In this document: positions 34,102-39,262 of the stretch, in pieces | How positions within the stretch are numbered: position 1 is the first letter of the stretch | How the letters are laid out: every line of letters begins with the position of its first letter | Source of the DNA: Candidatus Helarchaeota archaeon | GTDB taxonomy: Archaea > Asgardarchaeota > Lokiarchaeia > Helarchaeales > RDOG01 | Reading direction: 5' to 3' | Length of the DNA: 50,648 nt | NCBI GenBank assembly: GCA_029838215.1 | Contig: JALGVI010000007.1 | Coordinates: 1 to 50,648 of the forward strand | Notes under the pieces: generated by a model | The model's input: only the letters and a program-made list of their open reading frames with translations | The model's database searches: none | What the model was told of the DNA's origin: nothing | Translations under genes and position numbers: made by a program

Positions 34102-34632
34102 TCAAATGCTTAAATACGTGTCAATGTGCATCAGGATTCGCCGCATGATTTTTTCATTGTCCTGAAACTTTTCCCGTATTGCTTTTTTTAATAGATTTAC
34201 TTGCTCTTTCAAGATATTTAATCGTTCTTCCAAATATTGATTTCTATCAATGAGCGAGTATGTTCCAGGACCGCCGTCTTCGTCAATTGTAATTTCAGTA
34301 ATTGTTCCGACTTGAAATGACACGCCGCCTTCTTCTCTTTTTACCAAATCATCTTTTTCAAGGTTAAATGTCAGTAATTCAATTCCCGAAGGTGTAATGG
34401 AATATTTCGGTCGATGCTTTTTCCCCGAAACCATTATTACTGTTCGGTTGACAAGCCTGTTGTCGATCAATTCCTTTAAAGTTCGGTCTAGGAGAAAGTC
34501 ATTAATTTTTAATGCATTCTTGAGTGTTGAAAATGAGGATTGTGAATTCTGGTTACTTGTGAGAGAGAGATGTCTCAAGACACTTCTCACGTGCTTTTTT
34601 TCTAGGAGTTTTAATTGCTGAAAAGAAACCAT
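34102..34632 (-). CDS. Winged-helix transcriptional regulator with C-terminal coiled coil
   Basis: SFSTLKNAL...LDRTLKELIDNRLVNR...YSITPSG; zipper-like LEERLNILKEQVNLLK. Confidence 0.75.
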   Translation of the reverse strand: MVSFQQLKLLEKKHVRSVLRHLSLTSNQNSQSSFSTLKNALKINDFLLDRTLKELIDNRLVNRTVIMVSGKKHRPKYSITPSGIELLTFNLEKDDLVKREEGGVSFQVGTITEITIDEDGGPGTYSLIDRNQYLEERLNILKEQVNLLKKAIREKFQDNEKIMRRILMHIDTYLSI

Positions 34633-34884: not shown

Positions 34885-36324
34885 ATGACTGAAGAAGGCA
34901 TGTGGTCGGATCTTCCTTTTAACGTTGGTCTTGTCTACGAAGGCGAACGAATTCGTGGTAAACAGACTTATGTTGAATTGGGTGGTCCAAAACAACCTGC
35001 AAAATTCGAATTAGTCCAGGTCAAAGATGTCAAGGATATCAAGGACATGGACGTAGAAATCATTGGTCCTGACATTCCGGACATGAAAGAAGGCGGAAAT
35101 TATCCGATCGGAGTGTTAGTTGAAGTCGGTGGTAAACAAGCTGAAAAAGACCTTGAAGCCGTGCTCGAAAGACGCATTCACGAATTTTCCAACTTCATTG
35201 AAGGATTAATGCATTTAAACCAGCGTTATGACATCTGGATGCGAATTTCAAAGGCCGCCGTAAAGAAAGGCTTCAATTCATTGAAGATGTACGGCACTGT
35301 TCTTGCACGTCTATACAAGTCTGAATTCGGAAAAATTCTTGAAAAGATTCAAGTGAAACTCTATACTGATCCCGATAAAATTAAACCCATTTATGATAAT
35401 GCAATGGGAATTTGGGAAGCCAGAGATGCACGAGCAAGAGACCTCTCCGATGATGAAGTAGACATGTTCTATGGTTGTACTCTATGTTCCAGCTTTGCAC
35501 CATCCCACGTTTGCACCGTTACGCCTGGGCGAATTGCCTTGTGTGGTGCTATAAACTGGTTTGATGCACGTGCCGCAGCAAAAATTGACCCTGAAGGCCC
35601 TAATTTTGCCATTCCAAAAGGCGAGTGTCTTGATGAATTAGCTGGTGAATATTCTGGAATTAACGAAATCACGAAGAAAAAATCACTTGGAGAAATCGAA
35701 CGGGTAACTTTACACACGATATTAAGTCCTTATAACCATACATCTTGTGGATGTTTTGAAGCCATCGCATTTTTCGTGCCTGAAGTTGATGGTGTGGGAA
35801 TTGTTGACCGAAATTACAAGGGCACTACCGTAAACGGATTACCCTTCAGTACAATGGCAAATTCCACAGGTGGCGGAAAACAAGTCGAAGGGTTCGTCGG
35901 AATGGCTATCGAGTACATGCGTTCCAAGAAATTCCTTCAAGCCGATGGTGGATGGAATAGAATAGTTTGGATGCCTGCAGGAATAAAAAACCGCATTATT
36001 GATGCAATTCCTAAAGACATCGTAGACAAGATTGCGACCGAAGAAGTTGCTACCGACCTAGATTCTTTAAAATCATTCCTCAAGGAGAAGAATCACCCTG
36101 TCGTTAAGAATTGGGTGGAAGAAGCCGAAGAGGAAGAAGAAGAAGAAGCCGCACCCATGGTCCCAGCTGGGGGAATGCAGATGCCATCCATGGTTCCAAT
36201 GATGGGAGGCATTCAAGTAGCGAGTGGCGGTGCTAACTGGAAGATAATACTAAAAGGTGCCAAGATCTACGCCGACGAAATCCATATCAAGCGGATCCAG
36301 CCTAAAAAGAAGAAGAAGAAATGA
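34885..36324 (+). CDS. cdhC: Acetyl-CoA decarbonylase/synthase complex beta subunit (acetyl-CoA synthase)
   Basis: ELGGPK, HLNQRYDIW, CTLCSSFAPSHVC, LCGAINW, HTSCGCFE, DGGWNRIVWMP; poly-Glu and Met/Gly linker at the C-terminus. Confidence 0.96.
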   Translation: MTEEGMWSDLPFNVGLVYEGERIRGKQTYVELGGPKQPAKFELVQVKDVKDIKDMDVEIIGPDIPDMKEGGNYPIGVLVEVGGKQAEKDLEAVLERRIHEFSNFIEGLMHLNQRYDIWMRISKAAVKKGFNSLKMYGTVLARLYKSEFGKILEKIQVKLYTDPDKIKPIYDNAMGIWEARDARARDLSDDEVDMFYGCTLCSSFAPSHVCTVTPGRIALCGAINWFDARAAAKIDPEGPNFAIPKGECLDELAGEYSGINEITKKKSLGEIERVTLHTILSPYNHTSCGCFEAIAFFVPEVDGVGIVDRNYKGTTVNGLPFSTMANSTGGGKQVEGFVGMAIEYMRSKKFLQADGGWNRIVWMPAGIKNRIIDAIPKDIVDKIATEEVATDLDSLKSFLKEKNHPVVKNWVEEAEEEEEEEAAPMVPAGGMQMPSMVPMMGGIQVASGGANWKIILKGAKIYADEIHIKRIQPKKKKKK

Positions 36325-36364
36325 TTTTATTTCTTCTGAACCGAACTCTAGGAGTTGAAATAGT

Positions 36365-36499
36365 ATGGCCGAAGATTTTACCGAACGTCTCAATCGCCTT
36401 TTAAAGGATATCGATGAGGTTGTCATCAAGAATGCACGAATTGAAGCAGACGAGATCGAGCTCGGTCAATCAGAACCTACGAAGAGGAAGAAAAAATGA
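36365..36499 (+). CDS. 44-aa microprotein MAEDFTERLNRLLKDIDEVVIKNARIEADEIELGQSEPTKRKKK (stand-alone CdhC/CdhD terminal motif)
   Basis: Read by hand; GGAG at 36351-36354, TGA overlaps the cdhD ATG (ATGA); motif shared with both neighbours. Confidence 0.75.
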   Translation: MAEDFTERLNRLLKDIDEVVIKNARIEADEIELGQSEPTKRKKK

Positions 36500-37806
36500 G
36501 CGAAGAAATTAAAAAAATCATCGATGGTATTTCCAAGGATGCCGAAGAAATCGTCTTAAAGAATGTTGCTATCGTGGCAGACCAATTGGGTTTCGAACTT
36601 CAAGGCGGTGGCGGTGCCGATCCGCGAGTTCCTTACATGCAGGCAGGGATAATGCAAGCAATGCAAATCTTGCAAGGTGCTGTAGGAGGGCAAGTGATGA
36701 TGCCATCTGGTGCTGGTCTTGCACCTGGAATTGCTGCAGTGTTAAAGTGGAAAGCGCAGACTTTTAATTCGCCCGTTGAAACATATCCGGGTGAAATTGT
36801 TGTCGTGGAATTTTGCCGTTCTGGAAAAGGTGGAGAGGTCGTTAAAGCTGGTGGACAAAAAGCCATGAATTTCTACAATTTTGATTCTTTGATGCCACAT
36901 ACTCCAATCGTAACAGGAGATGTATTTGATATTCCCATTCACAAGAAAGGACGTGAATCTTTTCTCAGACTTTCAAAACCTGTCAAGGATCACTTCCTAA
37001 ATGGTCCCATAGGCGATGTCTCAACAGATGTCGGTGAATGGGCAAAGGCAAACGTGAAATATGGAGCTCAAATGGTCACGATGCATAATATCGGAACTGA
37101 TCCTACAATTCCGAAAAAGCTTGGTGGTCAAAAGTCTCCAAGAGAAGCTGCAAAGAATCTAGAAGAAGTTCTACAGGCTGTAAAATGTCCTGTCGTAATT
37201 GGTGGCTCTGGCAATCCAACAGAAGACATCAAGGTATTCGAAGCCTGTGCTGCAGTATCTGAATCAGAACGACTGCTAATCAGCTCAACTAACCTTGATG
37301 ATTATACAAAAATCGTCCCAATTGCTAAGAAATATGATCATAACATCTTGGGATTCACCCAACTCGACCTAAATAACGCCAAAAAATTGAATGCAGAAAT
37401 GCTTAAGCTAGGAATGCCTAAGGACCACATCGTGATGGACCCAACTTGTGCACCCCTTGGTTACGGAATTCAATATTCATTTTCCATCTATCAACGAATA
37501 CGACTTGCTGCCCTCAAAGGTGAAACGGACATTCAATGTCCGATGAGTGGTGGAACAACAAATGCATGGGGCGCGCGCGAGGCATTTTTGGCAAATAAAG
37601 TCAAGCCAGAATGGGGTGAGCGTAATTATCGAGGTCCACTTTGGGAGATCTTGACTGCATTCATGTTATCCATCGCGGGTCTTGACATAGCAATGATGTT
37701 ACATCCGCTTGCAATCCAATCTTTCCGACAAATAGTTACTGAATTGACCGCACGCGAAAAAGCCGCCAAGATAAATCACTTGGATTGGCTTACGATGGAG
37801 GTATGA
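36496..37806 (+). CDS. cdhD: ACDS delta subunit (corrinoid Fe-S protein small subunit)
   Basis: GGQKAMNFYNF, VVIGGSGNP..D..VFE..A, VMDPT..PLGYG..YS, AWGARE, GPLWE. Confidence 0.95.
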   Translation: MSEEIKKIIDGISKDAEEIVLKNVAIVADQLGFELQGGGGADPRVPYMQAGIMQAMQILQGAVGGQVMMPSGAGLAPGIAAVLKWKAQTFNSPVETYPGEIVVVEFCRSGKGGEVVKAGGQKAMNFYNFDSLMPHTPIVTGDVFDIPIHKKGRESFLRLSKPVKDHFLNGPIGDVSTDVGEWAKANVKYGAQMVTMHNIGTDPTIPKKLGGQKSPREAAKNLEEVLQAVKCPVVIGGSGNPTEDIKVFEACAAVSESERLLISSTNLDDYTKIVPIAKKYDHNILGFTQLDLNNAKKLNAEMLKLGMPKDHIVMDPTCAPLGYGIQYSFSIYQRIRLAALKGETDIQCPMSGGTTNAWGAREAFLANKVKPEWGERNYRGPLWEILTAFMLSIAGLDIAMMLHPLAIQSFRQIVTELTAREKAAKINHLDWLTMEV

Positions 37807-37816
37807 GGTGAGTTAA

Positions 37817-39262
37817 ATGGCAAAACTGTCTCCAATTAAAGTTGTATCGGCTTTACCCGGCACGAATTGTAGAGAATGCGGCGAAGAAACTTGCATGGCA
37901 TTTGCAGTCAAGCTCATTGACCATCAAGTCGATATAAACGATTGTAAGCCCCTCGTATCCGAGAAAAAATATGCGAAGAAATTGAAGGCTCTTAAGGAAA
38001 TTGCAACACCACCCATCCGTAAGGTCGTTATTGGTACGGGTGATCGTAAAATGATTGTTGGCGATGAAGAAGTCATGTATCGTCATGAATTGACGTACTA
38101 TAACCCTTCACCAATCTGTATCGAAGTTGCCGATGATGATTTAGACGAAGTTGCAAAAGTCACAAAATATGTCAACGACTATGAACTTTACCGCATTGGT
38201 GCCAACTATTATTTGGACGGCGTTGCAATCCGCTGCCGATCAAATGATGCAAAAACGTTTGCCGCTGCAGTCAAAAAAGCCAAAGAAATAACTGACATGC
38301 CTTTAATTCTTTGTTCCACCAACCCCGAAATTTTACGTGCTGGAGCAATGGTTGTAAAGGACAAAAATCCACTTCTTTATGCTGCAACCAGAGATAATTG
38401 GGAAAAAGTCGGAAAATTAGCACTGGAATTAAATTGTCCCGTTGCTGTATATTCTTCTGACCTATCCGAACTCAAGTCGCTTGCCACAAGCTTGCATGAA
38501 GCAGGAGTTGAGCAAATCGTACTTGATCCCGGATGTTATTATGGTTCTGGAAACGTCGCGGATACCATTGGTGCACATCTTCAACTCAAGCGTGCTGCAA
38601 TTGAGAAAGATGACAAATTGGTTGGTTTTCCCACAATGGGTGTAACCGCTACTGCGTTTATCGGCAAGGATAAGAATATGTCCGAAGGAGAACGAATCGC
38701 AGCCGCATACGAAGAAGGAAAGATGGCTTGTCTCCTAATGTGTAACGCCTGTAACCTCTTGATCATGCATACAATGGATAACTGGTTTCAACTGGCAATG
38801 GTCGTCGTGCGCGAAAACGTGTATTCCGATCCACGCGTGAATCCTTCAGTAGATGCAAAACTTTACGAAGTTGGCTCTCCGGATCAAGATAGTCCTGTAT
38901 TTATTACGACAAATTATACAATGACCTACTTTACGGTTCGATCGGATCTCCAAGATTTGCGTCTGAATGCTTGGCTTTTGGTCATTGACACGGAAGGAAT
39001 CTCCGTAGAATCTGCCGTAGCTGGCGGTCAAATGGTTGCCTCGAAAGTGGCTGAAGCCATTAAGGAGACTGGAGTTCTTGACAAAGTCAATCATAGGATT
39101 GTAATTATCCCTGGCCTTGCCGCGCGAATCTCCGGAGAATTAGAAGAACTTGCCGATCTCAAGGTTGTCGTTGGTCCAAGAGACTCAAGTGGTATCGAAA
39201 AACTGATGAAAGGATACGATAAGGATAGCTTAATGAAAGATTACCAAGCCATGAAGGCATAA
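37817..39262 (+). CDS. cdhE: ACDS gamma subunit (corrinoid Fe-S protein large subunit)
   Basis: LPGTNCRECGEETCMAFA...C [4Fe-4S] motif, YRHEL, TTNYTMTYF, IIPGLAARISG, VGPRDS. Confidence 0.95.
   Translation: MAKLSPIKVVSALPGTNCRECGEETCMAFAVKLIDHQVDINDCKPLVSEKKYAKKLKALKEIATPPIRKVVIGTGDRKMIVGDEEVMYRHELTYYNPSPICIEVADDDLDEVAKVTKYVNDYELYRIGANYYLDGVAIRCRSNDAKTFAAAVKKAKEITDMPLILCSTNPEILRAGAMVVKDKNPLLYAATRDNWEKVGKLALELNCPVAVYSSDLSELKSLATSLHEAGVEQIVLDPGCYYGSGNVADTIGAHLQLKRAAIEKDDKLVGFPTMGVTATAFIGKDKNMSEGERIAAAYEEGKMACLLMCNACNLLIMHTMDNWFQLAMVVVRENVYSDPRVNPSVDAKLYEVGSPDQDSPVFITTNYTMTYFTVRSDLQDLRLNAWLLVIDTEGISVESAVAGGQMVASKVAEAIKETGVLDKVNHRIVIIPGLAARISGELEELADLKVVVGPRDSSGIEKLMKGYDKDSLMKDYQAMKA

Follow-up and report, generated by a model that had tools for sequence, protein, structure and literature searches.

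The gene lying between cdhC and cdhD of a Helarchaeota archaeon encodes a 44-residue free-standing paralogue of the N-terminal head of CdhD, which is conserved and kept under purifying selection. The explanation that best accounts for the observations, to which we assign roughly even odds (a probability of about 0.5), is that the head of CdhD has been duplicated, that the detached copy binds the partner of the head and that it tunes the tethering of ACS within the ACDS complex. The archaeal ACDS is an assembly of about 2 MDa, and how this complex holds together is only now emerging. To our knowledge, CdhA, CdhC and CdhD have terminal tails that are conserved and invisible in cryo-EM, and one coiled coil is the only part of them to which a function has been assigned. 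The window referred to throughout is the whole stretch of DNA that was analysed, 50,648 nucleotides of contig JALGVI010000007.1 (assembly GCA_029838215.1, Candidatus Helarchaeota archaeon).

The cdh locus

The window sequence and the Pfam matches give the plus-strand order cdhC, small ORF, cdhD and cdhE (Table 1). Upstream, cdhC is preceded by the divergent gene of an HxlR-like regulator (34102-34632, minus strand), and the cluster of the window therefore begins at cdhC. The alignment of the CdhC protein (P0002) with M. thermophila CdhC (PDB 9c0s_E, E 3e-168) spans nearly the whole chain and takes in the C-terminal extension, and the 16 CdhC tails collected all have a basic C-terminal end. A poly-Glu run (36085-36140, CdhC residues ~401-419) precedes the Ala/Pro/Met-rich linker of the tail, an arrangement also seen in M. 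thermophila CdhC, and because of this run and of the poly-Lys end the extension is strongly dipolar. The window peptide is likewise dipolar, with an acidic head (net charge -5) followed by a basic tail (+4).

The first-pass annotation of this DNA had described a 44-residue ORF with a ribosome-binding site and ATGA-type coupling to cdhD, and both elements are borne out: a Shine-Dalgarno-like pentamer precedes the ATG of the micro-ORF, and its TGA (36497-36499) overlaps the ATG of cdhD (36496-36498), giving a 4-base stop/start overlap. The end of the peptide had also been likened to the poly-Lys end of CdhC, and its last five residues are indeed basic; their codons double as an SD-like purine run for cdhD. 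Directly 3' of the cdhC stop codon there is a T-rich tract (36325-36337). Oligo-T tracts can serve as terminators in archaea, and this T-rich to AT-rich stretch could be a terminator or a TATA-like element ~30 nt before the micro-ORF, in which case the peptide-cdhD-cdhE portion might be expressed differently from cdhC.

Table 1. Position, strand and supporting evidence of the genes and protein segments of the cdh cluster in the window.
Feature	Position	Strand	Evidence
cdhC, ACS beta subunit, 479 aa (P0002)	34885..36324	+	PF03598 E 6.5e-61, PF19436 E 2.7e-84
CdhC C-tail motif, residues 453-469, basic, alternating hydrophobics	36241..36291	+	hhalign, charge count
CdhC poly-Lys end, residues 474-479	36304..36321	+	translation
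Shine-Dalgarno-like pentamer, 10 nt 5' of micro-ORF ATG	36350..36354	+	sequence reading
Micro-ORF, 44 aa + stop (P0001), free-standing CdhD-head paralogue	36365..36499	+	homologues, pN/pS, profile match
Predicted amphipathic helix of peptide, residues 2-15	36368..36409	+	AF2
Acidic motif of peptide, residues 18-34, alternating hydrophobics, predicted extended	36416..36466	+	AF2, charge
Basic (Lys/Arg-rich) tail of peptide, residues 40-44	36482..36496	+	translation
cdhD, CoFeSP small subunit, 436 aa (P0003)	36496..37806	+	PF03599 E 9.8e-55
CdhD head, residues 1-35, parent module of peptide	36496..36600	+	profile match, hhalign
CdhD predicted helix 48-64	36637..36687	+	AF2 secondary structure
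cdhE, CoFeSP large subunit, 481 aa (P0004)	37817..39262	+	PF03599 E 3.7e-117, PF04060 E 3.2e-14

A conserved gene under purifying selection

A search of 40 related genomes with P0001 returned free-standing short frames directly 5' of cdhD in five of them (G001, G002, G004, G005 and G038), and the phylum-wide search added a further one in G243. The gene of G005 starts with TTG. In the relatives, spacers of 15-62 nt separate the peptide ORF from cdhD, with their own SD-like sites and with clean stops. On a larger scale, 30 clusters at 90% identity, all between 35 and 66 residues long, emerged when 5.8 billion proteins were searched with a profile; their members are unnamed or labelled 'hypothetical' and come from MAGs of Lokiarchaeota, Promethearchaeota and Helarchaeota. 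HMMER, run exhaustively on 1.84 billion representatives, found 14 clusters at 50% identity, again all short. No longer homologues of the peptide were retrieved at a database-wide E of 0.1, the module being very short for such a search. The exact P0001 sequence is on record on four contigs among the NCBI and JGI/IMG gene calls, and the designation of the ORF as a 'missed' microprotein therefore has to be given up: the gene callers did not overlook it, and it is merely nameless.

Selection could be estimated from two short orthologous pairs whose synonymous sites are near saturation, giving pN/pS 0.29 for G004 versus G002 (pS 0.95; 16, 4 and 23 differences at codon positions 1, 2 and 3) and pN/pS 0.24 for G038 versus G243 (pS 0.85; 16, 7 and 30 differences). 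Differences in the peptide gene are thus commonest at the third codon position in both pairs, and its two alternative frames contain 3-8 stops per sequence. The conservation of the amino acids despite saturated synonymous sites excludes a decaying remnant, an outcome that had been considered at the outset together with absence from relatives, and disfavours a purely positional upstream ORF. On these comparisons the micro-ORF is a real, conserved gene under purifying selection, present with its homologues 5' of cdhD in the relatives. A functionless vestige of a 5' duplication, retained because as an upstream ORF it brings ribosomes to cdhD, would account for the 4-base stop/start overlap and for the SD-like run of cdhD inside the last codons of the ORF, but it is made very improbable by the pN/pS values of 0.24-0.29 at saturated synonymous sites, by the spacers and separate SD-like sites of the relatives and by the retention of the same module in independent lineages.

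The junction itself has to be considered as well, since the frame of cdhD is +2 with respect to that of the ORF and the bases at 36490-36495 are six A, so that one extra A would fuse the two frames; the peptide and CdhD could then be one tandem-head protein, either split by a homopolymer error or joined by a frameshift. Against such an artefact or recoding stand the identical 44-residue protein on four contigs from two sources, the 44-residue orthologue P0041, which ends at the same place as P0001, and the count of tandem-head CdhD proteins, which is 0 of ~190 loci. Given the clean stops and the spacers in the relatives we read the six-A junction as genuine, and we regard a split or fused tandem protein as extremely improbable.

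Homology to the CdhD head and likeness to the CdhC tail

P0001 is encoded by an ORF of its own, with a separate start, stop and SD-like site, and does not contain the PF03599 TIM-barrel body. Pfam recognizes no family in it and NCBIfam gives only chance-level matches; one relative, P0005, weakly matches positions 3-45 of an NCBIfam delta-subunit model. The relationship becomes clear with profiles. The profile built from the 30 free-standing homologues matches the CdhD head of the window at 36493-36600 with E 2.1e-5 in a genome-wide search and with E 2.4e-4 against 78,828 six-frame segments, and the alignment of the peptide family with 34 CdhD heads by hhalign reaches a probability of 98% and P 2.8e-13 over 51 columns. 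The proposed match of the core of the peptide with the N-terminus of CdhD is thereby firmly upheld.

The likeness to the C-terminus of CdhC, which had been proposed alongside it, also stands, at a lower level. As single sequences, P0001 and the CdhC tail (36241-36321) match at E 0.059. When 16 CdhC tails are compared with the peptide family or with the CdhD heads, hhalign gives scores of 25-27 (P 1e-5 to 3e-5), the match between peptide and CdhC tail being a profile-profile match of 13-26 columns; 200 column shuffles of the peptide alignment, used as the null, reached a maximum score of 13.4, and the CdhD shuffle set contained one outlier of 130, probably a parsing artefact. The profile of the micro-family does not retrieve the CdhC tail, either within its own genome or among the six-frame segments. 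The same CdhC motif occurs in M. thermophila CdhC. The likeness of the peptide to the CdhC tail is therefore weaker than that to the CdhD head but, lying above the shuffle null, it is real at the level of sequence profiles. The N-termini of CdhA from relatives, considered as a third copy of the motif, fall in the same register with hhalign P values of 0.006-0.13, which are not significant. The first ~45 residues of CdhA at the cdhA loci of the relatives (L066-L077) show two short Lys-rich stretches and alternating hydrophobics. A PDB profile search gave a best E of 0.09, and the ESM Atlas gave no usable match.

The distinction between the two likenesses is sharpened by charge, compared over 17 columns placed in register by hhalign. 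The motif carries a mean net charge of -3.7 in the peptides (range -5 to -1, n = 30) and of -4.6 in the CdhD heads (range -7 to +1, n = 34), and in the CdhC tails the mean is +2.7 (range +2 to +4, n = 16). The hydrophobic positions coincide across CdhC tail, peptide and CdhD head, and the polar positions differ. The opposite charge within a shared hydrophobic register suggests a pairing of head with tail rather than one generic motif. The initial description of the peptide as a free copy of a motif common to the beta and delta subunits thus has to be narrowed, as the profiles identify it as a paralogue of the CdhD head specifically and the CdhC motif is oppositely charged; the peptide would mimic the CdhD head, with the CdhC tail as its apparent complementary partner.

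The basic tail of the window peptide is present in several, not all, subtypes of the family and is absent from the subtypes of 35-40 residues. A function apart from ACDS tethering, such as the binding of nucleic acid or membrane through this Lys/Arg-rich tail, would be compatible with the lack of a family assignment, but the tail is absent in several subtypes whereas the acidic head is invariant, the net charge of the family is negative and the synteny with cdhD is strict, and we hold such a function to be highly improbable.

Predicted architecture and the ACDS coiled coil

The AF2 model of the peptide, computed with the 30-sequence alignment, consists of a helix at residues 2-15 followed by an extended stretch (mean pLDDT 75, ~83 at residues 11-30). 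No strand or hairpin is assigned in this monomer, which was counted against the preferred explanation. The model of the window CdhD (mean pLDDT 78) has a helix at residues 3-14, a low-confidence stretch, a second helix at residues 48-64 and the TIM barrel from ~residue 100. The motif of CdhD thus lies outside the catalytic domain, as had been stated, within a low-confidence N-terminal region in front of the barrel. The predicted helix 2-15 of the peptide corresponds to helix 3-14 of CdhD, and helix 48-64 has no counterpart in the model of the 44-residue peptide.

In M. acetivorans, experiments with GFP fusions and with Leu mutants demonstrated a hexa- to octameric coiled coil, made by residues 45-68 of CdhD, in the centre of ACDS (Zimmer et al., bioRxiv July 2026; PMC13370988). 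The same study proposed that the disordered tails of CdhA (1-43) and CdhC (401-470) bind the disordered region of CdhD, and placed all disordered ACDS tails inside one interaction sphere (PMC13370988). The ~75-residue C-terminal extension of CdhC, 'of unknown function', is unresolved in 9c0s/9c0t, and a beta subunit that is truncated and separate from the complex can be obtained by limited proteolysis (Biester et al., 2024; PMC11474084). The terminal tails of ACDS are accordingly regarded as conserved, disordered and probable tethers (PMC13370988; PMC11474084). From its position, we infer that helix 48-64 of the window CdhD is the equivalent of the M. acetivorans coiled coil; the window peptide corresponds to the part of CdhD before it.

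These predictions bear on the idea, put forward with the first reading of the sequence, that the peptide is a cargo-less subunit of the oligomerisation hub. A true stoichiometric hub subunit would mean that the modules of CdhD, peptide and CdhC, and possibly of CdhA, form one core in which the peptides are cargo-less protomers. Short alternating-hydrophobic motifs in all three tails, the register common to CdhC, peptide and CdhD and the single interaction sphere described above (PMC13370988) are in line with such a core, and the subtypes of 52-66 residues, together with one Bathyarchaeia copy, continue into residues that correspond in the alignment to the beginning of the CdhD coiled coil. On the other side, the window peptide is devoid of the coiled-coil helix, the one ACDS element whose oligomerisation has been demonstrated by experiment, and this makes a hub subunit in the strict sense unlikely for the 44-residue version, and the likeness of the CdhA N-terminus to the motif does not reach significance; overall we consider a stoichiometric hub role unlikely.

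Distribution and origin of the peptide gene

Five of the seven genomes of the window's order carry the gene (families f1-f3). In G006, of the same order and 88% complete, there is no peptide gene and cdhD lies directly 3' of cdhC, and G003 (82% complete) gave no cdh matches. Family f4 yielded no free copy in 68 genomes, though their CdhD heads are matched, and a Loki-type genus (g14, family f5) yielded one in each of its two genomes. Among 80 named cdhD loci, found via an alignment of the CdhD body and spanning Asgard lineages, Methanocellales, Archaeoglobi, Bathyarchaeota and others, the peptide accompanies cdhD in four, those of Helarchaeota LW55_61, Hel_GB_A, Hel_GB_B and the MAG binchicken_co19_528. 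As the peptide is missing from most of the ACDS-bearing Asgard genomes searched, ACDS works without it. Many cdhD frames of family f4 (L038-L046 and similar) begin the conserved head only a few codons after an upstream stop, with no Met visible in the stop-to-stop translations, which leave GTG and TTG starts unmarked; the start codon of these genes may be non-canonical or TTG.

Two free copies were found among 251 Bathyarchaeia genomes. In one of them (G337) the copy lies between cdhC and cdhD. The other (G311; L182, reverse strand 1417-1671) is an ORF of at most 85 codons that overlaps the end of cdhC and is not followed by cdhD; with its helix, acidic motif, coil-like hydrophobic segment and basic end it resembles an entire N-region of CdhD from which the body is missing. 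In G038 (C17:140000-150000, L188 4378-7522, minus strand) and G243 (L036) the cluster is broken up, and the peptide gene stands with cdhD as a pair of their own behind the gene of an AMP-binding (acyl-CoA synthetase-like) ligase, with no cdhC, cdhE or other cdh gene adjacent. This isolated pair indicates that the peptide is tied to cdhD rather than to cdhC. Next to this pair, which belongs to a Loki-type genus, an MFS transporter gene converges on the end of cdhD.

The Helarchaeal peptides are 42-61% identical among themselves and 21-35% identical to their own CdhD, and those of G038 and G243 share 44-52% identity with theirs. In a tree of 34 columns the G005-type peptide groups with the CdhD heads of G005 and G006, and an AU test on the same columns rejects the grouping of all peptides in one clade (p 0.014). 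Several origins of the peptide gene are thus suggested rather than firmly established, because so few columns are available.

The archaeal-type cdhA (TIGR00314) was not found in the 94%-complete assembly of the window (G000), which has instead a CooS-like, Prismane-family CODH in an open frame of ~636 residues on another contig (C114; L034:1348-3174), with an unrelated N-terminus and without the tail motif. In G001, G002, G004 and G005, cdhA lies on the same contig, 2-4 kb upstream of the peptide gene. The peptide was considered as a substitute for the missing N-tail of CdhA and this idea was rejected, as these four peptide-bearing genomes have cdhA.

Proposed role in ACDS tethering

As a body-less copy of the CdhD head, the peptide is probably a small accessory piece or a competitor in ACDS tethering. 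From the gene and its homology, selection, synteny and charge pattern, we infer what the peptide would bind and how it would affect the complex, as follows. The 5' end of cdhD would have been duplicated to give a separate protein of 44 residues that keeps only the head of CdhD, that is the amphipathic helix and the acidic extended motif, with the short basic tail of this lineage added. Made from the operon of cdhD and translationally coupled to it, the peptide would bind whatever the CdhD head binds, the best candidate being the basic C-terminal motif of CdhC (ACS), and would fill tethering sites of ACDS without bringing an enzyme. With its one acidic docking module it might act as a cap or competitor that sets the number of ACS tails held on the CoFeSP scaffold. 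Alternatively, it might be a small adaptor that bridges sites via the basic tail, a variant that cannot be general as the tail is missing in several subtypes. Location in the operon of cdhD, translational coupling and position beside cdhD were counted in favour of a stoichiometric role; the single docking module, the lack of a coil and dispensability in most lineages were counted in favour of a modulatory one.

It is also conceivable that the peptide acts before the complex is complete, pairing transiently with the nascent CdhD head or with CdhE, preventing premature self-association and not remaining in the mature complex. The gene is the direct 5' neighbour of cdhD, in the window the two are translationally coupled, it stays with cdhD where the cluster is broken up, and the peptide shares its helix-plus-motif design with the head that it would shield. 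The oligomeriser that has been tested is, however, the later coiled coil and not CdhD residues 1-35, and since both of these partners, peptide and CdhD head, are strongly acidic, a pairing of like with like would be electrostatically unfavourable; we judge such an assembly helper to be quite unlikely.

Extending the preferred reading, a detached CdhD head that tunes ACS tethering, to the family as a whole, we tentatively suggest that tethering in ACDS may be modular and open to genetic tuning. On this view, the acidic head and the basic CdhC tail would form an autonomous docking pair, and the head would have budded off independently in Helarchaeales, in a Loki-type genus and in some Bathyarchaeia as a sixth, cargo-less ACDS component that sets the number of ACS. 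This wider proposal is possible rather than probable.

Comparison with known systems and significance

The closest known counterpart of the peptide is the N-terminal region of archaeal CdhD, the scaffold element of the M. acetivorans ACDS. The peptide is homologous to its first ~35 residues, is encoded in the same operon and shares with it a predicted helix followed by an extended acidic motif, but is free-standing, without TIM barrel and without coiled-coil helix. Archaeal CdhD, conversely, does not have the basic tail of the window peptide, and a separate peptide is not mentioned in PMC13370988. The C-terminal extension of archaeal CdhC contains a motif of 13-17 residues with the hydrophobic register of the peptide and a Lys-rich end. 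Unlike the acidic motif of the peptide, that of CdhC is basic, has no N-terminal helix before it and stands behind a poly-Glu and Ala-Pro-rich linker, which the peptide does not have. Considering both the likeness and the differences, the CdhC extension and the peptide are likely to be partners rather than equivalents.

A conceptual parallel is offered by the microProteins of plants and animals, such as LITTLE ZIPPER and the Id proteins, which consist of a single interaction module of a larger protein and engage the partner of the parent (PMC9638782). The peptide is likewise small, consists of a single module, is paralogous to part of a larger protein and is without a functional domain. The known microProteins are eukaryotic and mostly target transcription factors, whereas here the parent is a subunit of an archaeal metabolic enzyme encoded in the same operon. 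No family, structure or paper was found in which such a peptide appears as a separate entity. Both the module of the parent and the idea of tethering were known from work of 2024-2026; what is new is that this known interaction module occurs on its own, under selection and, apparently, repeatedly.

The existence of a natural and selected free copy of the CdhD head implies that this module of ~35 residues is an evolutionary unit able to work detached. A peptide of 35-65 residues can be synthesised, which makes it a minimal reagent for finding the partner of the head and for the titration of ACS tethering, and the opposite charges within one register provide a concrete, falsifiable hypothesis for the pairing of the CdhD head with the CdhC tail. 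If it is true that the peptide modulates ACDS, it would represent a rare prokaryotic case of a microProtein, acting on a central enzyme of carbon fixation.
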